From positions 4,713 to 68,712 of the forward strand of contig JABDBA010000009.1 of NCBI GenBank assembly GCA_013288885.1: a stretch of DNA of 64,000 nucleotides, given 5' to 3'. The notes beneath the pieces were generated by a model that did not search any database, was not told the origin of the DNA, and was given only the letters and a program-made list of their open reading frames with translations. Positions within the stretch are counted from its first letter, which is position 1. The number at the start of each line of letters is the position of its first letter. A program made the translations under genes and the position numbers. Shown here piece after piece: positions 1,495 to 51,504 of the stretch. The stretch is from Gammaproteobacteria bacterium. Lineage in GTDB: Bacteria > Pseudomonadota > Gammaproteobacteria > JABDBA01.

Positions 1495-2733
1495 TTATTT
1501 TTTTGCAACATATAAGTATTGAGTATATGCATCATCAGCAGCGTTAACATGCTTCGTATAATCATCTACAGTAGATATCTGAATTAAAAACCGTTCTAGT
1601 ATTTTTATCGATTTTCGTTTTAACCAGGAATGTTTGTTCAGAAAACTATTTAGTCCACCCCAAAAATGCCAAGAAACAGGCAATTTTGCTGTGATATTGA
1701 GTAAATCAAAAAAACCAAGTGATTTATTAGAAAAAAAAGGGATAGCTTCCACTGTATTGAAACCAGCTTCCTTCAATTTACCAATCATAATTTCTTTTGA
1801 ATATAAAGAACAATGGAACGCATGTTTAATATCATAATTAGCATATTTCATTGCTGCTTTTTTTGAAAAAATCTTAAGGAAACGAACGAGCACCAGTGAT
1901 TTATAATAGTCTTCCCGAGGTGTTGTAAATAACAGCACGCCATCATCTTTCAACACACGATTTGCAAATTCGAATACGCCCTTTATATTAGGTATATGCT
2001 CTAAGACAGATATACTCACTATCTTATCGATTGTTTTGGAACCCAAACAAGAGGATGTTACATCCTCGCTTAAATGAAAATCATAATAATCTGTCCGACT
2101 AGCATATAGATCTATATTTATTTTTTTTATTGCTTCATATCCTTCGAATAAAACATTAAAAACATCCCCACCACCACCACCAATATCTAACACCACTCCC
2201 AATCTCTTTTCTGGAAGACTCTCTTTCAAAACTTTTATTTCCAATAATTTATGAATCGCCATTTCAGGAACATAACAATAGCTACTCGCTAACTGATGTA
2301 TAATTTTAGAGATAGCCGCATTAGAATACGATTGACGTCTTTTGAAAAAGAGCCAACAATAGCAATAGAAAAATATATAAATATAAAAAATAAAATAAAA
2401 ACATGCATTCAAACTTTTCTTGATAATTGAAATAAAACCCTGCAAACCGGGCTTCCATTGAACGTTCTCAATATAGGCAACCATGGGTGCAGTAATTTCA
2501 CCCAGATGTATAGTTTCTGCATACTTTTGATTAAAATTTGCTATTTTTTCTTTATTTATTACAGTAACACAATTAATTAAAACAGAGTCAACAACAGCTT
2601 TTTTATTACCACATTTACCACATTGAACAACAGCATCGATTGACTTACCATCAGATGATGTATTAAGAATTTTGATATTTAAATTATCAACATGATCAAC
2701 ACAACATGCCATATAATTCGTTAATTCAATCAT
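1495..2733 (-). CDS. Class I SAM-dependent methyltransferase with an N-terminal Cys-rich segment and an aromatic-rich TM segment
   Basis: SAM motif I VLDIGGGGGDVF, a CGKCGNKK zinc-ribbon-like motif, and the hydrophobic stretch FYFIFYIYIFFYCYCWLFF. Confidence 0.6.
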   Translation of the reverse strand: MIELTNYMACCVDHVDNLNIKILNTSSDGKSIDAVVQCGKCGNKKAVVDSVLINCVTVINKEKIANFNQKYAETIHLGEITAPMVAYIENVQWKPGLQGFISIIKKSLNACFYFIFYIYIFFYCYCWLFFKRRQSYSNAAISKIIHQLASSYCYVPEMAIHKLLEIKVLKESLPEKRLGVVLDIGGGGGDVFNVLFEGYEAIKKINIDLYASRTDYYDFHLSEDVTSSCLGSKTIDKIVSISVLEHIPNIKGVFEFANRVLKDDGVLLFTTPREDYYKSLVLVRFLKIFSKKAAMKYANYDIKHAFHCSLYSKEIMIGKLKEAGFNTVEAIPFFSNKSLGFFDLLNITAKLPVSWHFWGGLNSFLNKHSWLKRKSIKILERFLIQISTVDDYTKHVNAADDAYTQYLYVAKK

Positions 2734-2777
2734 TTAAATTTCTCTAAAATAGTTTATGAAGCCAATGATTTAAATAA

Positions 2778-4028
2778 TCAAGCACTCCAGTTTTTGTCAA
2801 TATGATCAACGCCCTCTATTACGAATTGCCTGCTGTTTTCCCGTTCATTAACCTTTTCTTCCCACATATCGCCGAATAAACTCCAAATATTACAGGTTTT
2901 ACATGCCTCATACTTATCCCACTTGCCCTCTAAATGCGCCCTACGCATTGCACTTAAACGTTCCCATGCTTCTATAAAAGTTATATCTCGGACATGCCCT
3001 AAGTAAGGCACACGATGATTCTCTTTCTCTGGAACATAATCGGGAACACTTGCTACACAGGGAGCATATTGTCCTGTCCACTGCAATTTAAAATGCATAA
3101 AAATAGAACCACAAGGATAGCGTTTTTCAGGTGCTTGGTGGATAGGCGTAAAACCAGCTTTTTCCCACTGTTGTTTGAGATTCCAATTGTCACCACCCCA
3201 ATTGCCTACTGGTCTAAACGCAACACCATCTATTTTTTTCATCCAATGTTCACGAAATTTTTTAAAATCCTCTTTAAGCTCTTGAAAGCCCAAGATATGA
3301 CTTGTGATTTTCATTTTTGATTTTTTCTCTTCACGGATTTCACAAATCCGTTCTAAATTTCTCCAAACGCGATCAAAATGATCAACTTGCATCATTTTTT
3401 CATAGGCTTGTCGAGTCGGCGCATCAAAACTATAAGAATAGTGATCTAAGCCCTCATCCATTAGCTCACGAATTTTATCCTCTTTAAAAAGAGAACCATT
3501 TGTTGCCATTACGATAGGGAGTTTAGGTCTAACTTGTTTCATTAATTTAATCGCAGGTACTAGATTAGGAGCAGATAATGTCTCAGAGTAAGATGAGATA
3601 TTTAGCATAAGATTTTCTTCTGGCATTTCAGAAAGTGCTTTCCGCAAAATATCCATATCAAGCCACCCTGCTTTTTCTGGTTTCTGTACCGATTGCGGAC
3701 AGAAAATGCAAGAGTGATTACAGGGCGCTACACCTAAAGTTACAGAAAAATTAGTCGGCAATTTCGTTTCACCGATAACTACTTTGGCGTAATTAAGTTT
3801 TTCCTCAGCTGTTCTAAATGGAGCAATCTTACCCAGCAAACCAAAATCTCTGATTTCTGCCTCTTGGGCGGCATCAATTTTTTCCTGAGCTGCAATTTTT
3901 TCCTGAACTGCATCAACCTGACTTAGATTTTCAGCCTGGTTAGACATTTGTGTTTCTTCAGCATTGGGCTGATTATTACTCGGCGATCCCATTAACCCTT
4001 TCAACCATCTCTTAAAATTCTGTCTCAT
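2778..4028 (-). CDS. Radical SAM enzyme (possibly with a SPASM-like C-terminal Cys cluster)
   Basis: CxxxCxxC motif in GVAPCNHSCIFCPQ. Additional C-terminal cysteines (CGSIF...APCVAS...CKTCNIW). Low-complexity Q/E/A-rich N-terminus. Confidence 0.75.
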   Translation of the reverse strand: MRQNFKRWLKGLMGSPSNNQPNAEETQMSNQAENLSQVDAVQEKIAAQEKIDAAQEAEIRDFGLLGKIAPFRTAEEKLNYAKVVIGETKLPTNFSVTLGVAPCNHSCIFCPQSVQKPEKAGWLDMDILRKALSEMPEENLMLNISSYSETLSAPNLVPAIKLMKQVRPKLPIVMATNGSLFKEDKIRELMDEGLDHYSYSFDAPTRQAYEKMMQVDHFDRVWRNLERICEIREEKKSKMKITSHILGFQELKEDFKKFREHWMKKIDGVAFRPVGNWGGDNWNLKQQWEKAGFTPIHQAPEKRYPCGSIFMHFKLQWTGQYAPCVASVPDYVPEKENHRVPYLGHVRDITFIEAWERLSAMRRAHLEGKWDKYEACKTCNIWSLFGDMWEEKVNERENSRQFVIEGVDHIDKNWSA

Positions 4029-4078
4029 ATTTTTCTCCCATCTATATTTAGTAAAGATTTTATTAAAAACGATTAACT

Positions 4079-5023
4079 TTAAGTTTTATTAGCAACCACA
4101 GTAATACCAGCATCTTGAACATTAATATGCTCAATTTTCAAACCAGCTTCACTACACCATTTTTTAATCTCTTCTGGAGTATGCCTCTGACAGTTAAGAG
4201 GTCTAAACCAATCAAAATTAACATGGTTCATTTCATCAAACGAATATTCTGGGCGATAATATAACTTGCAAATATTCCAATAGAAAAAACGTTGAATATC
4301 AAGTTTTCCTTTGTTGATACCCAAATAAGGAATATCTTCTGGTACATCTACATCGATATTAAGTTCACCCAATGCAATACCCAATTTTGTTAAAGGTTCT
4401 AACGCCCTCCATGCTTGCTCATCTGACATGACCTGTAGTTGCTGGCGAATATGATCATCAGTAAATTCACGGACTGTTGCTTTTTTTCGATAAACATAAA
4501 ATAGAAAACGGCCACCTACTCGCAATTTTTTCGCGAGCACTTTAATTGATTGTTCTGTGTTATCCGTATGATGTAGCACACCCTCTGAAAAAATTATATC
4601 GGTAGAGTTATCTGGGATTGGAATATCAAGTAAACTGGTTTTAATAAAATCACCTTGATATCCCGCTTCAGCAAATCGTTCTCTTGCCACATTAACTGCG
4701 TCAGAAATATCAACACCGAGATAATCATGGTTAGTTAAATATTTATCAAAAAAAAGTAACGCGGAGTGACCGGAACCACAACCCGCATCTAAAATTATTT
4801 TTCGATCGCCTGCTAACCATTTTTCCAATCGTGTTGGATCATTATCACAATAACGCTCATATAACCATTTCTTGGTAGATTCTTTGACCGCTTCAGATTC
4901 ATAGGTATCACGTTTAGCCCATTTAAAGCCAAACGTTTGCTCTGTTTGTGATTGCGCATCACTGTACGCAGAATCTACTTTGAATTCAGCTTCATTAACC
5001 CCTAGTCTTGCCAATGCTGACAT
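4079..5023 (-). CDS. Class I SAM-dependent methyltransferase
   Basis: Motif I ILDAGCGSGHSALLF and a post-I acidic residue (GVDIS). 314 aa. Confidence 0.7.
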   Translation of the reverse strand: MSALARLGVNEAEFKVDSAYSDAQSQTEQTFGFKWAKRDTYESEAVKESTKKWLYERYCDNDPTRLEKWLAGDRKIILDAGCGSGHSALLFFDKYLTNHDYLGVDISDAVNVARERFAEAGYQGDFIKTSLLDIPIPDNSTDIIFSEGVLHHTDNTEQSIKVLAKKLRVGGRFLFYVYRKKATVREFTDDHIRQQLQVMSDEQAWRALEPLTKLGIALGELNIDVDVPEDIPYLGINKGKLDIQRFFYWNICKLYYRPEYSFDEMNHVNFDWFRPLNCQRHTPEEIKKWCSEAGLKIEHINVQDAGITVVANKT

Positions 5024-5043
5024 GTCTCACCCTATTAAAAAAA

Positions 5044-6924
5044 TTAAACTCCATTATTTTTCAACCACTCCTCAAAATTCAACAACGACCAGATAAACAA
5101 ACGCCGATTTTGTTTACCTTCCAAATGCTCATTAACCAATGCCCGTACCGCCACCGGATTCATAAAGTCGTATATTCTAGCATGATTATCGAACACAATG
5201 CGCCTAACATAGTCAATACTTTCGCCTTTAAACCAAGAGGCATCCGGTGCCGAAAACCCTTTTTTCTCTGCAGAGGTGATTTTTTCTGGAATGTATCTTT
5301 GCATCACATCGCGTAATAATATTTTACCATCCTGGTTTTTTTCGAAATACTTGGCCGATTTTGGTCCCGGTTCATTTTCATTTAAGCATACTACTTCGGC
5401 AACATTTTTTAATTTCATTCTTACCGGCACTTGCATGGCAAAATCAACCAAATCGTTATCTAAAAACGGCACTCGGGTTTCTAGGCCATGCGCCATGCTC
5501 AACTTGTCTTCTACCACCAATAGCCCATGTAAAAAAGTTTTGGCTTCAAAATATAAAGAATGGTTCACGTAATCTTCCGGCTGCGTCAATTTAGCGGCAT
5601 GTTCGTGGAACACCCCCCGAAAAATATCACTGGTTTGAACATGTTTTACTTGATCCCAAATCGGTGCAAATACCCCTTGTAAAGCTGAATTGGGTATTAA
5701 TCGCTGCCAAAACTTATAATATTTATCGATATAATGGTCAAAATCATCATTGGCGACTGCTCGATAATAGCGCCACGGGTAGCCGGCAAATAACTCATCG
5801 CCGCCTGCCCCTGATAGCACTACTTTAACAAATTTCGAGGCTAATTTGGCTATATAATAATTAGGATAACTCTGCCCTACTCTTGGCTCTTCTAAATGAT
5901 AAGCCAATTTGGGCAGCACCCGCTCCATATCACCTGACTTTAATACCATTTCATAATGTTCAGTCTTAAAAAGATAAGACATATATTCGGCATGTTCACG
6001 CTCATCAAAGCCAAGCTCTAAACCCGAAGCCGATCGTAGATCAAAACCACAGGTAAACGTTTTCATAAAAGGGTGTTGGCGCGCTGCCAGTGCGGTGATA
6101 GAACCGGAATCCATACCGCCACTTAAATAACAGCCCACATCCACGTCACTCACTAACTGGCGATTAACTGCCTGGCTAAATAATCGATCCAACTCGTTGG
6201 CATATTCGGTTTCATGCAGTGGGTGCTTAGGTTCAGCAAAGTTAAAATCCCAATAGCGATACGGGTCCAATTTATTCGTTTCTTTTTTTAACGCTAATTT
6301 AGCCCAACAACCGGCGGGGAAAAGATGAATACCTTGTAACAGCGTTTTATCGGTAAAAATATTTTGAAAAGTAAAATATTCTAATAATGCTTCAACATCA
6401 ATATTGCGACGCAGATCAGGGTGGGCCAACAACGCTTTTTGTTCTGAACCAAATAAAAATGTTCCACCCATAAACGTATAATAGAGTGGCTTGATACCAT
6501 AACGATCACGCGCTAAAAATAATTCTTGCTGTGTTTTATCCCAAATCGCAAAAGCAAACATACCATTAAAACGATTAACACATTCAGCGCCCCATGCCAT
6601 ATAAGCATTGAGCACCACTTCTGAATCTGTTTTGGAATGAAAACGATGACCTAAACTTTCTAACTCTGCACGTAGTTCTTGAAAATTATATATTTCGCCA
6701 TTATAGGTAATCACATATTGATTATCGGATGTAACCATCGGTTGATGACCGGAAGCAGAAAGATCGATAATCGCTAAACGTCGATGCCCAAGCCCTACCG
6801 AGCCATCGATGAAAACACCTTCGCCATCAGGACCACGATGCGCAATAGCATCCATCATCCGTTTTAGAATAACCGGAGAAGCAGGTTGTTTATTGAAATT
6901 AACTATTCCGGTTATGCCGCACAC
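5044..6924 (-). CDS. Asparagine synthase (glutamine-hydrolysing)-family amidotransferase, probably for sugar amidation or amidino formation
   Basis: N-terminal MCGITGIV (Ntn Cys2), SGGMDS PP-loop, 626 aa. It sits inside a glycan locus and overlaps the upstream gene by 13 nt. Confidence 0.85.
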   Translation of the reverse strand: MCGITGIVNFNKQPASPVILKRMMDAIAHRGPDGEGVFIDGSVGLGHRRLAIIDLSASGHQPMVTSDNQYVITYNGEIYNFQELRAELESLGHRFHSKTDSEVVLNAYMAWGAECVNRFNGMFAFAIWDKTQQELFLARDRYGIKPLYYTFMGGTFLFGSEQKALLAHPDLRRNIDVEALLEYFTFQNIFTDKTLLQGIHLFPAGCWAKLALKKETNKLDPYRYWDFNFAEPKHPLHETEYANELDRLFSQAVNRQLVSDVDVGCYLSGGMDSGSITALAARQHPFMKTFTCGFDLRSASGLELGFDEREHAEYMSYLFKTEHYEMVLKSGDMERVLPKLAYHLEEPRVGQSYPNYYIAKLASKFVKVVLSGAGGDELFAGYPWRYYRAVANDDFDHYIDKYYKFWQRLIPNSALQGVFAPIWDQVKHVQTSDIFRGVFHEHAAKLTQPEDYVNHSLYFEAKTFLHGLLVVEDKLSMAHGLETRVPFLDNDLVDFAMQVPVRMKLKNVAEVVCLNENEPGPKSAKYFEKNQDGKILLRDVMQRYIPEKITSAEKKGFSAPDASWFKGESIDYVRRIVFDNHARIYDFMNPVAVRALVNEHLEGKQNRRLFIWSLLNFEEWLKNNGV

Positions 6925-8066
6925 CGGACACCTTTAATGGTTGCAACCACATATTCATAATCTTCCTTGGTCATTTTGTTGTGCAGTGGAATAGCCATTG
7001 AATAACGATCACAATCACGCGCACCGGGGAAATCATCTGGCGCTAAACCAAATTTTTGTTGATACAAACCTAGCATGTGCACAGCGTGTGTGCCAGGGCG
7101 CGTACTAATGCCTTTATTTTGTAAATATTCCATAATTGCGTTGCGCGGTAACGGCGCTTTGCTTTCATCTATGAAACAGACAAAAGACTGCCAACCATGC
7201 TGATAATCTTCGGGCGTAACAGGTGTACGCAGCCATTCAACACCCGCTAATTCTTTGCTGTAATAATCAGCCCAACGTTGACGTTCTGCAATAAATTGAT
7301 CTAGTTTTTTAAATTGCACAAGACCTATTGCACCTTGAAGATCAGTCATACGATAGTTAAAACCCAGCAAATTAAAATCAGCTAAAATATAAGGTCTAGG
7401 ACCATGATGTCTTTGCTCTTCAGAAATACTTGCGCCATGATTACGTAACATATTCATTTTTTCTGCTAAGGCATCATCATTAGTAGTTACCATGCCCCCT
7501 TCACCCGTAGTCACTGATTTACGCGGATGAAAGGAAAATGCTGCTGCTAACCCTAGTGCACCGGCTGATCGTTTTTTATAAAAACTACCCGATGCGCAAG
7601 CCGCATCTTCGAGCAATGGAATACCCGGTGCTACTTTTGTTAAAGCATCCATATCAGCACACAAACCAAATAAATGAACAGGAATAATCGCTTTGGTGCG
7701 CGGTGTAATTTTAGCTTTAACTTGTTTAATATCCAGATTATAAGTAAGCGGATCCACATCTACAAACACTGGTGTCGCACCACAAAACATCACTACATTG
7801 GCGGTTGCCACCCAGGTAAAAGCAGGCACGATCACTTCGTCACCAGGGCCAATATCAAGTGCCGCCAACATCAAATGTAAACCTGTCGTGCAACTGGTAA
7901 CGGCAAGTGCATGTTTTACTTGATGCCGTTGCGCAAATGCTTTTTCAAAAGCAGCCACTTTGGGGCCTTGCGTCAACCACCCGTTCATGATGGGTTCGCG
8001 TACGGCTTGCCATTCTTCTTCGCCCGTGGCTGGGGTTGATATCGATATATTGCGGATAGTTGCCAT
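6912..8066 (-). CDS. DegT/DnrJ/EryC1/StrS-family PLP sugar aminotransferase
   Basis: 384 aa with typical family blocks (VIVPAFTWVATAN, FSFHPRKSVTTGEGGM). Confidence 0.85.
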   Translation of the reverse strand: MATIRNISISTPATGEEEWQAVREPIMNGWLTQGPKVAAFEKAFAQRHQVKHALAVTSCTTGLHLMLAALDIGPGDEVIVPAFTWVATANVVMFCGATPVFVDVDPLTYNLDIKQVKAKITPRTKAIIPVHLFGLCADMDALTKVAPGIPLLEDAACASGSFYKKRSAGALGLAAAFSFHPRKSVTTGEGGMVTTNDDALAEKMNMLRNHGASISEEQRHHGPRPYILADFNLLGFNYRMTDLQGAIGLVQFKKLDQFIAERQRWADYYSKELAGVEWLRTPVTPEDYQHGWQSFVCFIDESKAPLPRNAIMEYLQNKGISTRPGTHAVHMLGLYQQKFGLAPDDFPGARDCDRYSMAIPLHNKMTKEDYEYVVATIKGVRCAA

Positions 8067-9076
8067 TATTCAATTCCTACAGCGGCACGCCGTTCTGCCA
8101 CTTCTTTTTTATGAGTATTACGCCATTCAATTAATTTTTTTAATCCTTCGCGCAAAGTAACCATGGCCTTAAAATTTATTTCTTTCTCTGATTTCACTGG
8201 GCTACCGATTCTATTTTTAACAAAGGTCATGCCAGCTGGTTCGTATTGAATTTTTTGACTAGAGCCGGTGATTTCTAAAATCAACTCAGTCAATTGCTTT
8301 ATCGTAGTTCGAATGCCCGTGCCTACGTTATAAAAATTATCAGTCGCTTCTGCTTTCATGGCGCAAACGTTTGCACTACCACAATCACCCACATAAACAA
8401 AATCATATGCTTGTGATCCGTCGCCATAAACTTGCGGTGGTAAATTTTGATCGAGGCGATCTAAAATTTTCATGATGACTGCAATATATGCGCCACGATA
8501 ATCTTGCCGCGCGCCGTATACATTCATGTAGCGCAAACCAGCGTAATCAAAATGTTGATCGGTTTTTTTATAACGATGATATAACGCACGACACATATGT
8601 TCGCCCGCAATCTTAGTAGCGCCATAAAAATTATTATTATTGTAAGGATGATCTTCGGTCATCGGTTCTTCGACGGCATCACCATAGACAGAGGCTGAAG
8701 AAGAATAAACCAAACGCTTAACCCCATTATTGACCACCGCTTCTAACACATTAAAAGTGCCGCCAATATTCACTTCAAAAGCCGAACGGGGATAATCATA
8801 GCAATGCAGCAACCAGAGTGCTGCGAAGTGAAAAACACCATCGATATCTTTCATCGCAGCGTTTAAAATATCTCGATGTAAAATGTCCCCACCTGCTGGG
8901 AAAATAGTAACGCGAGGATCTTTCAAAGCATCGATTATATTTTCGCGACTACCACGGGTGAAATTATCGTAGATACGAATTTCTTTGACATCTTCTTTTA
9001 ACAAGGCATCGACAGTGTGTGATCCGATAAGACCAGCACCACCGATTAATAATAAACGCTTACCATTGATATCCAT
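8066..9076 (-). CDS. NAD-dependent epimerase/dehydratase (extended SDR)
   Basis: Rossmann motif GGAGLIGSH and catalytic YGATKIAGE (YxxxK). Its stop overlaps the start of the downstream gene. Confidence 0.85.
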   Translation of the reverse strand: MDINGKRLLLIGGAGLIGSHTVDALLKEDVKEIRIYDNFTRGSRENIIDALKDPRVTIFPAGGDILHRDILNAAMKDIDGVFHFAALWLLHCYDYPRSAFEVNIGGTFNVLEAVVNNGVKRLVYSSSASVYGDAVEEPMTEDHPYNNNNFYGATKIAGEHMCRALYHRYKKTDQHFDYAGLRYMNVYGARQDYRGAYIAVIMKILDRLDQNLPPQVYGDGSQAYDFVYVGDCGSANVCAMKAEATDNFYNVGTGIRTTIKQLTELILEITGSSQKIQYEPAGMTFVKNRIGSPVKSEKEINFKAMVTLREGLKKLIEWRNTHKKEVAERRAAVGIE

Positions 9077-9107
9077 AGTTTTTTTGAGTTAGTTAAGTTA
9101 AGTAAAG

Positions 9108-10196
9108 TTAAATTGCTTCGCGCAAAGCAGTGATTATTTCTTGCATTTGCTTCTCACTCACATACGGATCCATCGGCAAACTCATCACGCGTTTTGCTGC
9201 TTGCTCGGAAACAGGAAAGCTGCCTTCTTTTAGATTTAGCGGGGCAAACACTTGTTGCATATGCAATGGGATTGGATAATGCACAGCCGTAGGAACACCT
9301 ACTGTTTTAAGTTTTTCTTGCACTTTTTCGCGGTTATCCACTTGCACGGTATATTGCGCATAGACACTGGTGTTGCCTTCTGCAACATGAGGCACAGTCA
9401 CATAATCTTTGAGTAAATCGCTGTAACGCGCACCAATACGCGCACGGTCGATAACCTCTTCGGGGAAGATTTCTAATTTCGCCAATAGAATCGCCGCTTG
9501 TAAAGTATCTAAACGACTGTTCATTCCGAGCAAACGATGATGATAACGTTTGTCTTGGCCATGCACACGAATTTGCCGCATATCAGTAGCGAGTTGATCG
9601 TCATTGGTAAAACATGCACCACCATCGCCGTAACAACCCAAAGGTTTAGAGGGGAAAAAGCTGGTGCTACCAATGGTAGAAAGATTGCAGGATTTTTTGC
9701 CTTTATACATTGCTCCAAAACTTTGCGCAGCATCTTCGATAACAGGAATTTTGTGTTTGTTAGCAATCGCGTTAATCGCATCCATATCCGCACATTGACC
9801 ATATAAAGAAACCGGCATAATGGCTTTGGTTTTAGGTGTAATAGCTTGTTCGATTTTTTTAGGGTCGATGTTAAAGGTTTTGGGGTCAATATCGACAAAA
9901 ACAGGCTTAGCGCCCATTAAGGCAATCATTTCACCCGTGGCAATAAAGGTAAAAGGCGTAGTAATGACTTCATCCCCAGCTTTAATGCCCAACGCCATCA
10001 TTGATACCATTAAACTATCAGTACCATTGGCCATAGTGATACAGTGTTTAGCCCCTACGTAATTGGCTAGTTTCTCTTCCAATTCCTGAACTTCCGGCCC
10101 CATAATGAATTGGCCATGTTCCAATACGGTTTTAATGCGTTTGTTAACTTTTTCTTCAATGCGTCGATATTGGGTCTTCAGGTCAATAAATTGCAT
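9108..10196 (-). CDS. wbpE: DegT-family aminotransferase, WbpE-like (UDP-2-acetamido-2-deoxy-3-oxo-glucuronate aminotransferase)
   Basis: 362 aa DegT-family sequence (MQFIDLKTQY..., SFFPSKPLGCYGDGG). The locus also has WbpA/B/D-like genes. Confidence 0.7.
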   Translation of the reverse strand: MQFIDLKTQYRRIEEKVNKRIKTVLEHGQFIMGPEVQELEEKLANYVGAKHCITMANGTDSLMVSMMALGIKAGDEVITTPFTFIATGEMIALMGAKPVFVDIDPKTFNIDPKKIEQAITPKTKAIMPVSLYGQCADMDAINAIANKHKIPVIEDAAQSFGAMYKGKKSCNLSTIGSTSFFPSKPLGCYGDGGACFTNDDQLATDMRQIRVHGQDKRYHHRLLGMNSRLDTLQAAILLAKLEIFPEEVIDRARIGARYSDLLKDYVTVPHVAEGNTSVYAQYTVQVDNREKVQEKLKTVGVPTAVHYPIPLHMQQVFAPLNLKEGSFPVSEQAAKRVMSLPMDPYVSEKQMQEIITALREAI

Positions 10197-10508
10197 AGTT
10201 TAGAGCCTCATTGGGTAGTTTTTAGGGTTATTGGGTCAGTATTTTACCCTAAATTAGGGCGGGTGGACAGAGTAAATCTAGTATCGCAGGAAAGAATAAT
10301 CACTAAAAAACCTGCTGGAATGGTTATAGCAATTCCAGCAACCACCCTATAAAAGCTGACAAAATTTAATTTAAAGCGTGCAAACTCACCCGCTATCCCT
10401 AAGGTTTACTTATAGATAACAACCTGTTATATTGCCCATGCTTTCTTTGATTTCCGCAACCAGAAAGAAAATTTCACTTTAAATTAATTTTTAACAGAAG
10501 GGGTTTTT

Positions 10509-10925
10509 ATGCAAATTTTAAAAAATTTTTCTAAACTAGCTTGTTTATCACTGTTGTTGATTAGCAGTTATGCTATGGCTAGCCAGAGTGTATCATTTTA
10601 TGGAAATTTAAATAACTTAACAGGTGATAATATTAAGCAAATTATGCTGGGTGATCTTGGCGCTAAACTTTTAATAAGCCTACCTGTTCACTCCGGTCAG
10701 ACCGTTCCTTTTACTCTATACCCTTCAGAATATGATGCCAATGGCGCCTTCTTATTTATCTTTGGTAATAAGACCAACTGTGCTGTCAGTTACAACAGTA
10801 ATGGTTTATTCTTGGGTGCTACCCCCTCGTGTTTAGATAAGAACTATAATCTTTCTCTTTCTGGCAATCCAACAAATGGCTTCACTATTACGATAACTAA
10901 TATATCTAAACCTGCTGCCAAATAG
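10509..10925 (+). CDS. Small secreted protein of unknown function
   Basis: Signal peptide MQILKNFSKLACLSLLLISSYAMA|SQ, GAAGGGG upstream of the ATG, and a rho-independent terminator right after the stop. Confidence 0.55.
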   Translation: MQILKNFSKLACLSLLLISSYAMASQSVSFYGNLNNLTGDNIKQIMLGDLGAKLLISLPVHSGQTVPFTLYPSEYDANGAFLFIFGNKTNCAVSYNSNGLFLGATPSCLDKNYNLSLSGNPTNGFTITITNISKPAAK

Positions 10926-10950
10926 CATTAAAAGATTTATTTATTTTTCC

Positions 10951-10987
10951 AGCCCCTTTTTTCTTGATCGAAAAAAGGGGCTTTTTT
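10951..10987 (+). terminator. Rho-independent terminator
   Basis: AGCCCCTTTT-loop-AAAAGGGGCT stem followed by TTTTTT. Confidence 0.65.
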
Positions 10988-11060
10988 ATAACAGTTGAAA
11001 ATTAGTCATTCAATTCTTCTCCTAAAGCAGCATTGCTGCCATAAACAAAATCCAAAATAA

Positions 11061-25756: not shown

Positions 25757-25845
25757 GTAGGTCGGATCAAGGAGCGCAGCGACGGATCCGACATACAATG
25801 CTAGCAATTATCGCTGTCGGTTCCGCTTCGCTTGAACCGACCTAC
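25757..25845. repeat. REP doublet (BIME-like, family B)
   Basis: GTAGGTCGGATCAAGGAGCGCAGCGACGGATCCGACA, then a 21-nt linker, then TGTCGGTTCCGCTTCGCTTGAACCGACCTAC. These are two inverted GTAG-hairpin units. Confidence 0.85.
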
Positions 25846-25862
25846 CTGTTTGATCCCTTGCT

Positions 25863-41211: not shown

Positions 41212-41369
41212 AATTGTTATTTTAATGATTACCTTAAGCTTTGACCAAAAATTTTGCCGAGGCATCATATCATTATTCCACCCCAAAGCTATAGCCTAGA
41301 TCGGTAAAATACAGTTTTTTATTTATTTCCTGCGAAACAACCAAAATAGTGCAAATTTTGAGCGGAAGA

Positions 41370-41577
41370 GTAAATAGCTGCCTGGTTATTGCTTGTCTCT
41401 CATATGCGAGCGTAACCCTCGTATCGAGGCGTGCTCACTTGCTCGCTAGACAAACATCCCTGTTTACTAGCGAGCGGCGTCATCCATGACGCCGCCCTTT
41501 CGGGCGAAGGTTGCGCGCGCGCTCTCTACTCGGCGCTCGCACAAATCGAGCCAATCAATAACCAGGCAGCTATTTAC
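41370..41577 (+). repeat. Family C hairpin element, copy 1 (208 bp, terminal inverted repeats GTAAATAGCTGCC...)
   Basis: Termini GTAAATAGCTGCCTGGTTATTG / CAATAACCAGGCAGCTATTTAC. Internal hairpins CTCGCTAG...CTAGCGAG and GGCGGCGTCAT-CC-ATGACGCCGCC. Confidence 0.85.
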
Positions 41578-41598
41578 GCTTCATATATTTGTGTGCGA

Positions 41599-41668
41599 GT
41601 AGGTCGGCTCAAGGAGCGTAGCGACGGAGCCGACATTAGTAATGCTCATTAACATCGCTGCCGGAAAG
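41599..41668. repeat. REP-like element (family B), right arm degenerate
   Basis: GTAGGTCGGCTCAAGGAGCGTAGCGACGGAGCCGACA followed by a decayed second arm. Confidence 0.7.
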
Positions 41669-41711
41669 CTACGCTATCCCACGAAAAGACACCTGAGAAC
41701 CTGGCAGCTAT

Positions 41712-42911
41712 TTACCCTTCTGTGCAGAGGGATGTTTTATCTTTCCGCACCCCACTTTTATCATAATTAAAAGAACTCGGATAACCAGCACCATTCCATA
41801 TCATGTCAAATAATGGTTTAAATACTTTATCTAAACCTAAACTATCCTCCAGCAAAAACTCGTTTATCAAAATATCAGGGGTTTGAATAATATCGCGATC
41901 AAACCTTTTCTCATCGCGATCAAAAGGGGAATTATTTCCATAGATCAGTACTACATTTTTTACACCAATAAGTGTTAAAAAAATAACAATGGGCGGTGTA
42001 ATTTGCAATTCACGAAATATCCCTTCACATTTGTTGTAAAAACTTAGTATCTGTTGTTCAAAATCTTGTTGGAGTATCGTTTTACCATTACAAGGAGGTA
42101 TACTGTTTACAGATTCGATGGAACCATTACGAAATAACATTGTATAACCGTGCGATCCACCCTCAACCAAACCTCTATGGCGAAATACACCGTCAATGTT
42201 AATACAATCTGAACCATCCGCACTACGCATTAAAGGCAGCTGATAAGCTGAATCCAAACTATCCAAATATTTATTTATATCTATTAGTGAATTTTGTAAA
42301 AACGAATAGACAGGTATTAAATGAAAAACTAATTTAGGATATGGTTGCAATGGAATAGGGGAATTATCATAGAGTAATTCACTTATTCTTTTAGCTCGAA
42401 AGTTTTTAATTTTTTCTTGAAACCCTTCCGTTGTTAAAACAGCATTTCTGACTTCAAAAACATCCATAGGCTGATTGCATGCTGAAGCACGAATATAAAA
42501 ACGATTCGATTTTTTAGCAGCATGCGGCTTATTTAAACTTTGTATTATTTTTAGAATTAAAACTTTCTTTGTACTATCCTCAACTATTTTAATATCAGAT
42601 CCATAAAAACTAGGTTCAGTATTAGTTCTAATGACTTCAGTAATCTTTCGTATTTCACCATCTGAGTTACTTATCTCTATACCAGATATAGCGGTAGGAA
42701 ATCCATCCTTTTCTTCCATACCGTAAACAATATACCCACCAGATGCATTTGCAAATGCACACACATCATTAATAAAACCTTCTTTTTCTTTATCATTAGA
42801 AAAATTTGGTAATTTACTTTTGTAATCAATATATTTTGATTCCGGAACTTTATTCTCCACTAAGCCTGTAATATCCGAGAACTTAATTTGGCTAAACGAT
42901 TCAAAAAGCAT
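41712..42911 (-). CDS. Schlafen/AlbA_2-domain protein with an uncharacterised C-terminal half of about 230 aa
   Basis: The N-terminal 150 aa follow the AlbA_2 pattern: ESKYIDYKSKLP...FINDVCAFANASGGYIVYGMEEKDG...VLILKIIQSLNKPH...FYIRASACNQPMDVFEV. I recognise no motif in the C-terminal half. Confidence 0.6.
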   Translation of the reverse strand: MLFESFSQIKFSDITGLVENKVPESKYIDYKSKLPNFSNDKEKEGFINDVCAFANASGGYIVYGMEEKDGFPTAISGIEISNSDGEIRKITEVIRTNTEPSFYGSDIKIVEDSTKKVLILKIIQSLNKPHAAKKSNRFYIRASACNQPMDVFEVRNAVLTTEGFQEKIKNFRAKRISELLYDNSPIPLQPYPKLVFHLIPVYSFLQNSLIDINKYLDSLDSAYQLPLMRSADGSDCINIDGVFRHRGLVEGGSHGYTMLFRNGSIESVNSIPPCNGKTILQQDFEQQILSFYNKCEGIFRELQITPPIVIFLTLIGVKNVVLIYGNNSPFDRDEKRFDRDIIQTPDILINEFLLEDSLGLDKVFKPLFDMIWNGAGYPSSFNYDKSGVRKDKTSLCTEG

Positions 42912-43029
42912 GACATACTCCTCAAGACTATACCTATTGCAAAATTTCCAACAGTTTATATTTAATTGGTTTTCAATACCTGGTTATTCTCACCTTTGTA
43001 TAGATGGTAGGATTGCCTTTCGAGTTGCT

Positions 43030-43159
43030 CTATTTCAAAACTCTCTTAGCAATTCGATAAATTTCTCCGTCATTTCGTTTACCAACCAAGACTATCGTTA
43101 CTATTTACTATGTCTTTTTCAGGTTCAAATCGATAGATAATCCTATATTCGCCTATAAG
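43030..43159 (-). pseudogene. RelE/ParE-type toxin remnant (C-terminal third only, frameshifted)
   Basis: The reverse strand reads LIGEYRIIYRFEPEKDIV... then, after a 1-nt shift, VTIVLVGKRNDGEIYRIAKRVLK*. Compare the intact toxin at 28922-29188 (IGEYRIIYSFDDSIVYIKLIGKRNGGEVYKKLKR). Confidence 0.55.
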
Positions 43160-43164
43160 AGATC

Positions 43165-43248
43165 ATGTGGTCAAGTCTACGATCTATGTATTTGACAATA
43201 TTTTGCGCAAAATATTGTCAAATACATAGATCGTAGACTTGACCACAT
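43165..43248. repeat. Perfect 84-bp palindrome (40-bp arms around a central GCGC)
   Basis: ATGTGGTCAAGTCTACGATCTATGTATTTGACAATATTTT GCGC AAAATATTGTCAAATACATAGATCGTAGACTTGACCACAT. Checked base by base. Confidence 0.95.
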
Positions 43249-43260
43249 CGCCTTTTTCTC

Positions 43261-43354
43261 CGCGGCTCAAGGAGCGTAGCGACGGAGCCGACAGCGATAA
43301 TGATTTAGCATCGAATGTCGGATCCGTCGCTGGCGCTCCTTGATCCGACCTACC
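43261..43354. repeat. REP doublet (BIME-like, family B)
   Basis: ...GGCTCAAGGAGCGTAGCGACGGAGCCGACA - linker - TGTCGGATCCGTCGCTGGCGCTCCTTGATCCGACCTAC. Confidence 0.85.
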
Positions 43355-43372
43355 TGCACTCAGATATAAAGC

Positions 43373-43581
43373 GTAAATAGCTGCCAGATGACTTGCTTGG
43401 CTTGAGTTGTGCAAGCGCCGAGTAGAGGGTGCGGCGCAACCTTCGCCCGTAGGGCGGCGTCATGGATGACGCCGCTCGCTAGTAGACAGGGATGTTTGTC
43501 TAGCGAGCAAGTGAGCACGCCCCGAATACGAGGAGCAAGCTTGCACACGAAAGACAAGCAAGTCATCTGGCAGCTATTTAC
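43373..43581 (-). repeat. Family C hairpin element, copy 2 (inverted relative to copy 1)
   Basis: The core is homologous to the reverse complement of 41370-41577. Termini GTAAATAGCTGCCAGATGACTTGCTTG / CAAGCAAGTCATCTGGCAGCTATTTAC. It ends 5 nt before the dxr stop. Confidence 0.85.
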
Positions 43582-43586
43582 ACATT

Positions 43587-44762
43587 TTACGGGTGGCGAT
43601 TTAAGAGTTGCGCACATTCTCGTGCAGCGGCGTTGTCTTGCAGGATGATGTCTAAGTTCGTGGCGGGTCGTGATGGAAGTTTGTTTAACACTTTATCGAC
43701 GGTGATGGCGATATCGGTGAATGCCATTTTGCCGTCTAAAAATGCTTGCACGGCAATTTCGTTAGCGGCATTTAAAATGGTTGGTGCAGTACCGCCTGTT
43801 TGCAGTGCTTGATACGCTAAATTTAAACACGGGTAACGTTCAGTATCTAACACCGCAAAATCTAACTTGCCTAAAGTCAATAAATCCAAATTATTCACCC
43901 CACTGGCGATGCGTTCGGGCCAAGCCAAGGCATGGGCGATCGGCACGCGCATATCGGAACAACCCAAATGCGCTAAGGTAGAACCATCTTTATATTCCAC
44001 TAATGAATGCACCGTGCTTTGTGGATGCAATAAAACTTTAATTTGATCCGCAGGTAAACCAAATAACCAATGCGCTTCGATCACTTCTAAACCTTTATTC
44101 ATCATGGTAGCGCAATCGACAGTAATCTTTGGGCCCATGTTCCAATTCGGATGAGTAATTGCTTGCGCCGGTGTCACATTGGGCAAATCCGTTAACGGCA
44201 ACTCACGAAATGCACCACCCGAAGCGGTCAATAAAATTCGGGCAATTTTAGCATTGCGTTCACCCATTTTAAAATCAGTCGGCAGGCACTGAAAAATAGC
44301 ATTGTGTTCGCTATCAATTGGCAATAACGTTGCATTGTGATCACGCACTTCTTTCATAAACAATGCACCCGCCATCACTAACGCTTCTTTATTAGCTAAT
44401 AAAACACGCTTGCCTGCTTTTGCTGCCGCTAATGTCGGCAACAAACCTACCGCTCCGACAATAGCAGCCATCACGATATCGGCTTGCGGCAGGCTAGCTA
44501 CTGTTTCTAAACCAGCATTGCCTATTAACACTTCAATTGTTAAATTAATTTTTTGTAAGCGTTGTTGCAATAATTTAGCACTCGCTTCATCCGCCACCAC
44601 AGCATATTCAGGGCGATGCAATGCGCACAGATCATATAAACGATCAATATTTTTATGCGCAGTCAATGCCAGCACCCGAAAATTTTCACGATGACGGGCA
44701 ATAATATCTAACGTGCTTAAACCAATTGATCCTGTTGCACCTAAAATAACAATATTTTTCAT
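43587..44762 (-). CDS. dxr: 1-deoxy-D-xylulose 5-phosphate reductoisomerase
   Basis: ILGATGSIGLSTLDI N-terminus. 391 aa. Confidence 0.95.
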   Translation of the reverse strand: MKNIVILGATGSIGLSTLDIIARHRENFRVLALTAHKNIDRLYDLCALHRPEYAVVADEASAKLLQQRLQKINLTIEVLIGNAGLETVASLPQADIVMAAIVGAVGLLPTLAAAKAGKRVLLANKEALVMAGALFMKEVRDHNATLLPIDSEHNAIFQCLPTDFKMGERNAKIARILLTASGGAFRELPLTDLPNVTPAQAITHPNWNMGPKITVDCATMMNKGLEVIEAHWLFGLPADQIKVLLHPQSTVHSLVEYKDGSTLAHLGCSDMRVPIAHALAWPERIASGVNNLDLLTLGKLDFAVLDTERYPCLNLAYQALQTGGTAPTILNAANEIAVQAFLDGKMAFTDIAITVDKVLNKLPSRPATNLDIILQDNAAARECAQLLNRHP

Positions 44763-51402: not shown

Positions 51403-51504
51403 GATCCTAGGGGTCAGATCTTGACTTGCTACATGCTAAAGAGACAGTTATTGAGCCCTATAATTTCTAAGCAAGTAGCAAGTCAAGATCTGACCCCTAG
51501 GATC
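51403..51504. repeat. Perfect 30-bp inverted repeat with a 42-nt spacer
   Basis: GATCCTAGGGGTCAGATCTTGACTTGCTAC (51403-51432) and its exact reverse complement (51475-51504), starting 6 nt after the ansA stop. Confidence 0.95.

Follow-up and report, generated by a model that had tools for sequence, protein, structure and literature searches.

How does a long perfect palindrome come to lie inside a conserved gene cluster of a bacterial chromosome, directly against the broken end of a toxin gene, and is it a control site, part of a mobile element, or a scar? The question is raised by an 84-bp palindrome at positions 43165-43248 of a 64,000-nt stretch of contig JABDBA010000009.1 (assembly GCA_013288885.1), which was analyzed as a whole and is called the window here. 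Judging from its proteins, the host appears to be an uncultured Rickettsiella/Coxiella-like gammaproteobacterium. Its closest BamA among 5.8 billion proteins is 66% identical, with named relatives at 52-53% (Rickettsiella/Aquirickettsiella) and about 45% (Legionella), and its closest Dxr in species-representative genomes is 64% identical. No relative close enough to show the locus before the palindrome was found, these being the nearest by BamA and Dxr. The only public sequencing run that holds the organism is SRR8430286, a "soil metagenome" represented by 2.76 Mb of Logan contigs. The palindrome is most likely a recent copying accident and not a toxin-antitoxin control site.

An inverted-repeat search of the window returned two 42-nt arms, 43165-43206 and 43207-43248, that are 100% complementary with 0 nt between them. 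The preliminary description had counted 40-bp arms around a central GCGC, and direct reading of the letters bears out the perfect 84-bp symmetry, in the form of 42-nt arms without a spacer. Such a structure is statistically extraordinary. In bacterial chromosomes, natural perfect palindromes whose arms exceed about 20 bp are very rare. By script, the next-longest perfect palindrome arm in the window and 83 other bacterial loci (1.27 Mb) has 17 nt, and a survey of E. coli MG1655 lists no perfect inverted repeats with arms of at least 20 bp (PMC5941160). As single-stranded DNA, the 84 nt fold with −43.4 kcal/mol (z = −14.9 against shuffles). The window holds another long inverted repeat, 51403-51437 with 51470-51504, whose 35-nt arms are 97% complementary around a 32-nt loop and whose sequence is unrelated to the palindrome.

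Below about 100 bp, palindromes are as a rule tolerated and are deleted at increased rates. The earlier statement that a perfect palindrome of this length is normally unstable in bacteria through cleavage by SbcCD-type nucleases is too strong as worded; the E. coli SbcCD cleavage experiments cited here concern a 246-bp interrupted and a 460-bp perfect palindrome (PMC4245961), not one of 84 bp. Comparisons with familiar structured elements were negative. Rfam gave only generic hairpin matches to eukaryotic miRNA precursors, all far below the gathering score. A scan found no intrinsic terminator in the palindrome, whose stem is A+T-rich and is followed by a T run that begins 4 nt past it. Inspection of the palindrome ends showed no GTTRRRY or RYYYAAC of an integron attC site, and the stem is perfect, without extrahelical bases. 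There is no tRNA in the 64-kb window.

All genes around the palindrome lie on the minus strand and belong to a conserved cluster, tsf-pyrH-frr-uppS-cdsA-dxr continuing into bamA-skp-lpxD-lpxA-lpxB. Between dxr and bamA lies a gap of 2.3 kb (41287-43586) that holds only repeats and an island of low GC content. One distant relative has dxr directly followed by a bamA-sized ORF (locus L005, 9140-9237); another has a 453-aa, RseP-sized ORF between dxr and bamA (locus L004, 5732-7093), for which the gap in the window has no counterpart. The features needed below are the following.

25757-25848: further copy of MITE-like repeat B
41370-41585, minus strand: MITE-like repeat A, in opposite orientation to the copy at 43365-43589
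41605-41657, plus strand: partial MITE-like repeat B, outer inverted-repeat half
41712-42911, minus strand: Schlafen/AlbA_2-domain gene, intact, 399 aa (Pfam E 8e-20; nearest homologue 34% identity)
43030-43162, minus strand: RelE/ParE-like toxin pseudogene, C-terminal ~41 codons only, truncated at the palindrome
43165-43206: left arm of the palindrome, exact reverse complement of 43207-43248, also present in Logan contig L001
43207-43248: right arm of the palindrome, consisting of the 38-nt repeat module GCAAAATATTGTCAAATACATAGATCGTAGACTTGACC (43207-43244) and then ACAT (43245-43248)
43249-43262: 14-nt spacer 3' of the right arm, CGCCTTTTTCTCCG, followed by MITE-like repeat B
43263-43353, plus strand: MITE-like repeat B, left end without its outer 6 nt (GTAGGT), adjoining the 14-nt spacer
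43365-43589, plus strand: MITE-like repeat A with 39-nt terminal inverted repeats, its end lying at the dxr stop codon

The island has a GC content of 31%, and the MITE-like repeats that bracket it about 55%. The A and B repeats reach a summed Logan depth of 1,700-11,000 against about 135 for single-copy DNA, which puts their number per genome in the tens. The island is flanked by A copies in inverted and B copies in direct orientation, as in a composite element or a recombination-mediated insertion. Its cargo is the AlbA_2 gene and the truncated, frameshifted RelE/ParE remnant, and the palindrome lies at its edge. PADLOC gave no match for the AlbA_2 protein. The last codons of this ORF overlap a solitary MITE-A end fragment (41698-41720), so that repeat DNA may provide both the C-terminus and the stop codon of the ORF. 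Three island pieces (42343-42582, 42690-42840, and 42903-43053) recur with 100% identity at a depth of 2-7 in peat and hot-spring metagenomes, both of 2025; the dxr-to-pyrH stretch of the host, unlike these pieces, was found only in the source run. Through either horizontal transfer or cross-contamination, DNA of the island is thus also present separately from this host. The best explanation of the island is that it is decaying and horizontally acquired.

The toxin feature next to the palindrome is a remnant, not a gene: the 5' half is absent, the frame is shifted, and the match to the Pfam ParE_toxin profile is partial (positions 62-86 of 89, E 1e-3), its 20 bits lying under the 23-bit cut-off. 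By tblastn it best matches annotated RelE/ParE toxins, in their C-terminal halves and with 45-58% identity, and a word-based homologue search returned no word-sharing homologue. The frameshift stems from a 7-nt tandem duplication of TTACTAT (43098-43111), and taking out one copy restores a reading that ends in EPEKDIVTIVLVGKRNDGEIYRIAKRVLK and a stop. The reading frame runs into a TGA that includes the first palindrome base; remnant and palindrome thus do abut, as the preliminary description had said of a truncated RelE-like gene. The idea that the arm is a continuation of the toxin gene was rejected, since the Pfam alignment stops short of the arm. The antitoxin gene is missing, and remnant and palindrome have no ORF between them.

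Searches for the arm in other DNA gave little. The 42-mer arm and a 19-mer core have no second occurrence in the 64-kb window at up to 3 mismatches (shuffles expect 0), and sensitive ungapped and blastn-short scans for the arm showed nothing above background. An exact scan with a 27-mer of the arm gave 0 matches in genome contigs and 0 in metagenome contigs, 20-mer and 23-mer words gave 0 matches in the viral contigs scanned, and an exact scan of metagenome contigs with the flank of the second copy described below likewise gave 0. With blastn, the palindrome matched nothing among plasmids, and among phages only its 26-nt palindromic core, CAATATTTTGCGCAAAATATTGTCAA, was found in Vibrio phage YC (MH375644.1, 68660-68685; locus L084, 1501-1526). 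There it sits between a terminator-like hairpin and the start of the next gene. The match is probably due to chance, and the 20-mer occurs in only 2 IMG/VR contigs.

Within the source run the picture is different, and the arm is not unique. The preliminary description had proposed looking for either arm elsewhere in the genome, and a module of about 38-40 nt does recur there, once as an imperfect inverted pair and once as a single copy; this recurrence is the new element of the present analysis. When the required likeness was cut to 80%, two further contigs of SRR8430286 matched the arm module. The second copy lies at 8262-8341 of a 25,527-nt contig with a depth of 187, somewhat above the chromosome. 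Its left module (8262-8289) differs from left-arm positions 43169-43196 at 3 of 28 sites and its right module (8291-8330) from 43209-43248 at 2 of 40, where mismatch counts and 30-nt flanks, for this and the third copy, are inferred. A single base separates the two modules where the window has 12 central nt. The second copy is an imperfect inverted module pair in which about 11-12 central nt are missing and a loop of about 9 nt remains. Its right module shares with the window the terminal ACAT, which in the window is mirrored as ATGT in the left arm; on its left side, TAGG stands where the window has ATGT. After the right module it continues as ATTCTTTTTCT, against CGCCTTTTTCT in the window, and CTTTTTCT (43252-43259 in the window spacer) is common to both tails.

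The third copy is a single module at 228-266 of a 548-nt contig of depth 6.4, with 32 of 39 positions identical and unrelated DNA on both sides, and it probably belongs to another strain or organism of the sample. Contigs of the run at depths of about 6 and about 32, against about 135-187 for the main genome, also have the same MITE-B ends and include one copy of the palindrome module. Related strains of low abundance seem to be present in the sample. An apparent likeness between the flank of the third copy and the left flank of the second was rejected, as the consensus agreement of 0.72 between two sequences corresponds to only about 44% identity. The core shared by the whole family is the 38-nt module GCAAAATATTGTCAAATACATAGATCGTAGACTTGACC, from which the paralogues differ by 5-18%, and the family comprises three loci in 2.76 Mb of contigs. 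Similarity to the window starts at 43206 in the third copy and at 43209 in the right module of the second, within 2 nt of the centre in both. Since similarity ends at the centre in both copies, the turn-around point of the palindrome is a natural end of the module.

These results do not fit the suggestion that the arm is an end of a multi-copy insertion sequence or MITE. The family is low-copy, and the similarity between its members stops at the centre instead of at the outer ends. The flanks show no target-site duplication, and a transposase gene is absent from the surrounding 8 kb or so. Among the four options listed in the preliminary description, the junction of two element ends and the footprint of a hairpin-forming or fold-back event best fit a recurring module that breaks at the centre; the operator idea does not.

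Whether the palindrome is real at all deserves attention before its origin is discussed. Logan contig L001 (1,614 nt, depth 137, with neighbors at 132-151) is identical to window positions 41608-43221. It stops 15 nt past the centre, with the terminal sequence TTGACAATATTTTGC followed by GCAAAATATTGTCAA and no competing continuation, and it stops there because a k = 31 graph must do so at a perfect palindrome. The reads therefore contain the centre and the left arm at the depth of single-copy DNA. By contrast, the right junction (43249-43262) is in no Logan contig of the run, not even as 31-mers, although contigs of 31-100 nt from neighboring repeat (MITE) junctions survive. Two of the 15 sampled words of 43040-43262 are missing from the run, and the source contig, at just 90.5 kb, points to a short-read assembly. 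These points speak for the view that assembly or library preparation produced the perfect palindrome, or its connection with the right flank, as an artefact, through traversal of a hairpin node, fold-back chimeras, or chimeras of low-input amplification. We regard an artefact as unlikely, though it deserves to be taken seriously. The independent assembly contains the left arm and a 30-nt perfect centre at a depth of 137 with no alternative path, and the second copy too has the inverted-pair arrangement. In addition, CTTTTTCT follows the right arm as it does in the paralogue, which makes the arm and its tail a natural unit and not a random chimera, and the junction sequence is unlike that of the second copy, so it must come from reads of this locus. 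Low coverage at a strong hairpin, together with coverage-based pruning beside nodes of 1,700-11,000x, could account for the missing junction. Overall, the palindrome is probably a true chromosomal sequence.

Taken as real, how did it arise? Our preferred explanation, to which we give somewhat less than an even chance, is that the palindrome is a recent inverted duplication of the right-hand module by fold-back or template switching, with the turn at the tip of the module and the event located at a deletion scar. It starts from three observations, namely the symmetry, the repeat family, and the break in similarity at the centre. The right arm would be the original, matching a module elsewhere in the genome at 38 of 40 positions as a close paralogue, and the left arm would have been copied from it recently, exactly, and in inverted orientation. 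At the module tip, a DNA end or stalled nascent strand would have turned back and copied 42 nt of the complementary strand, after which synthesis or joining would have resumed inside the neighboring RelE-like gene. The outcome would be a perfect, spacer-less palindrome set against a truncated toxin pseudogene. That copying ran from right to left, that it proceeded by fold-back, and that it is tied to the loss of the 5' half of the toxin gene and of the antitoxin is what we infer from the following evidence.

The two arms are identical at 42 of 42 positions, against 2 of 40 and 3 of 28 mismatches to the second copy, which means that they were made identical recently relative to the age of the family; the other family members are not perfect palindromes. 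The symmetry in the window reaches 4 nt (ATGT/ACAT) past the 38-nt module, so that the arms are exact reverse complements even in bases outside the shared core, as expected of a template-switch product. Because ACAT follows the right module of the second copy and TAGG stands on its left, the left arm looks copied from the right one. The turn-around point coincides with the natural module end, L001 carries the left arm and 15 nt beyond the centre without a competing path, and the palindrome has no consensus promoter or terminator. The surroundings are decaying: RelE/ParE is truncated and frameshifted, its antitoxin gene is gone, and MITE-B is truncated. Template switching between the arms of inverted repeats is an established route from imperfect to perfect palindromes in proteobacteria (PMC5941160). 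Against fold-back copying, the classic quasipalindrome mechanism extends arms outward, and a spacer-less centre needs a nearly loop-free U-turn, which is less usual. A centre at the module boundary is equally expected from an enzyme that cuts and joins there, and the right junction is absent from every Logan contig. Direction and single-event origin are not demonstrated, since no ancestral allele of the locus was found. From their alignments, the second copy, with its central deletion, and the third, with its breakpoint at the centre, appear to resemble the usual fates of a fragile palindrome centre. It is to a similarly tentative degree, not quite evenly balanced, that we see the palindrome as a structural scar in a decaying island and not as a working operator, promoter, or mobile element.

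The preliminary description had placed the palindrome where an antitoxin gene and its operator would be expected and had read its inner part as operator-like. One may accordingly ask whether a dimeric regulator binds it as an operator-promoter, one that would have served a relBE-type operon in the past or would serve the AlbA_2 gene today. It does lie upstream, on the minus strand, of both the RelE remnant and the AlbA_2 gene, and it contains four TTGAC motifs spaced 21-24 bp apart. The left arm has TTGACC (43169-43174, minus strand), TTGACA (43192-43197, plus strand), and one GATC; read from the sequence, a TTGACC-18 nt-GAATAT arrangement faces the remnant. The two TTGACA hexamers noted earlier are present (43192-43197, plus strand; 43216-43221, minus strand), but each reads toward the centre instead of outward as had been described. 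The identical 26-nt core at a promoter-like intergenic spot in Vibrio phage YC could be taken in the same sense, but its presence in only 2 IMG/VR contigs is compatible with chance. We consider the operator reading very improbable. The antitoxin gene is gone and the palindrome abuts the middle of the toxin gene; there is no sigma-70 consensus promoter in or across the palindrome, and a promoter scan of 43165-43248 found no promoter-like site, the best candidate being TTGACA-15 nt-TATTGT. Homologues of AlbA_2 elsewhere, in unrelated contexts, have no such palindrome or repeat upstream. Toxin-antitoxin operators are also far shorter than 84 bp.

A more serious competitor, if still an unlikely one, is that the locus is maintained as a break-and-join site, or that two mobile-element ends meet there, the module being a half-site or a terminal inverted repeat. 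In its detailed form, about which we are just as doubtful, an enzyme encoded elsewhere (a transposase, a site-specific recombinase, or a telomere resolvase) cuts and rejoins at the exact centre; the window copy would then be the intact or "right-right" product, the second copy a centre-deleted one, and the third a half-site joined elsewhere, and these assignments are hardly more probable than their premise. Similarity between the copies breaks at the centre, as such cutting would have it, but any fragile palindrome also yields breakpoints there. The modules occur as tip-to-tip inverted pairs at 2 of the 3 loci, and the TTGACA in each module reads toward the tip. A junction spacer of 2-3 bp would give TTGACA-17/18-TATTGT, as at the circle junctions of insertion sequences; the actual spacing of 15 nt fails the promoter scan, and no junction promoter with −35 and −10 hexamers at 16-18 bp exists in 43165-43248. 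Mobility is suggested by island DNA that is 100% identical in two unrelated metagenomes without the housekeeping genes of the host. Within about 8 kb, however, there is no transposase, recombinase, or protelomerase gene, the flanks are housekeeping genes, and neither arm is adjoined by an element body. The family of three loci in 2.76 Mb is very small. A target-site duplication is absent, as the flanks, ending in GAGATC and beginning with CGCCTT, share no direct repeat; a 5-nt direct repeat, CGCCT (43150 and 43249), was considered as one and rejected, since RelE-like coding similarity spans its left copy. A bolder version, which we think improbable, holds that the palindrome is the intact form of an undescribed break-and-join site that is cut between GC and GC and helps to move the AlbA_2 island. 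A hairpin-forming transposase, a recombinase, or a telomere-resolvase-like enzyme of the Coxiellales-like genome would then yield the second and third copies, a proposal we hold to be equally improbable. As for telomeres, two hairpin ends of a linear chromosome with a common 42-nt terminus could have been joined by the assembler. In a k-mer graph, such ends and an internal palindrome are indistinguishable, and the end of the Logan contig at the centre and the lack of the right junction would also fit. We give this view almost no weight: GC skew and gene strand continue unchanged across 43.2 kb, the site falls within a conserved gene cluster of which a relative has the two halves side by side, and no telomere-resolvase gene is nearby. 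The junction to the unique flank should moreover have full depth, so the missing junction stays unexplained under this view.

If raw reads confirm the palindrome, a recent fold-back copy would make this locus a clean natural case of a long perfect palindrome born from a pre-existing repeat, with paralogues that seem to have decayed in the expected ways, one by a central deletion and one by a break at the centre. If true, it would also mean that a lineage of obligate-intracellular type tolerates such a structure inside an essential gene cluster. The locus carries a warning as well, because short-read graphs cannot fully verify such sites, and its right junction is missing from the independent assembly.

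How does the locus compare with known systems? The circles and dimers of IS30, IS911, IS2, and IS21 contain abutted inverted-repeat junctions, and the palindrome resembles these in its identical ends placed tip to tip and in a −35-like TTGACA facing the junction. It differs from them in having no IS body, no transposase, a 0-bp spacer, a hexamer spacing of 15 nt, and two ends that are both of the "right" type. Like the targets of telomere resolvases (N15 telRL and the Agrobacterium TelA site), it is perfectly palindromic, with arms rich in A+T around a short G+C centre, and an exchange at the centre would explain the half-sites. To our knowledge, however, all telomere-resolvase target sites are shorter than 84 bp, and here no protelomerase gene and no phage or plasmid context lies within 8 kb, the setting being a conserved chromosomal cluster with continuous GC skew. 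Bacterial palindromic repeats include REP/BIME, Correia, the Rickettsia palindromic elements, and the Coxiella QMITEs. The present element shares with such repeats and with bacterial MITEs that it is short, non-coding, hairpin-forming, and found in a repeat-rich genome, but it is very low-copy, has perfect arms and no target-site duplication, and loses similarity at its centre and not at its outer ends.

The remaining two comparisons concern processes more than elements. Quasipalindrome correction, or short-range template switching, as described by the Ripley model and studied with E. coli reporters (PMC5941160), matches the exact copy of an arm, the imperfect paralogue, and the symmetry that extends beyond the module. 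Known quasipalindromes have arms of 5 to about 20 bp and keep their loop, whereas the window has 42-bp arms and no spacer, and a deletion probably occurred alongside. The locus resembles the engineered palindromes of the E. coli chromosome (PMC4245961) in being perfect, spacer-less, and capable of forming hairpins, and the paralogues found here look like products of a fragile centre. The engineered palindromes, 246 bp interrupted and 460 bp perfect and cleaved by SbcCD, were built by design, while the one described here is natural and only 84 bp long.
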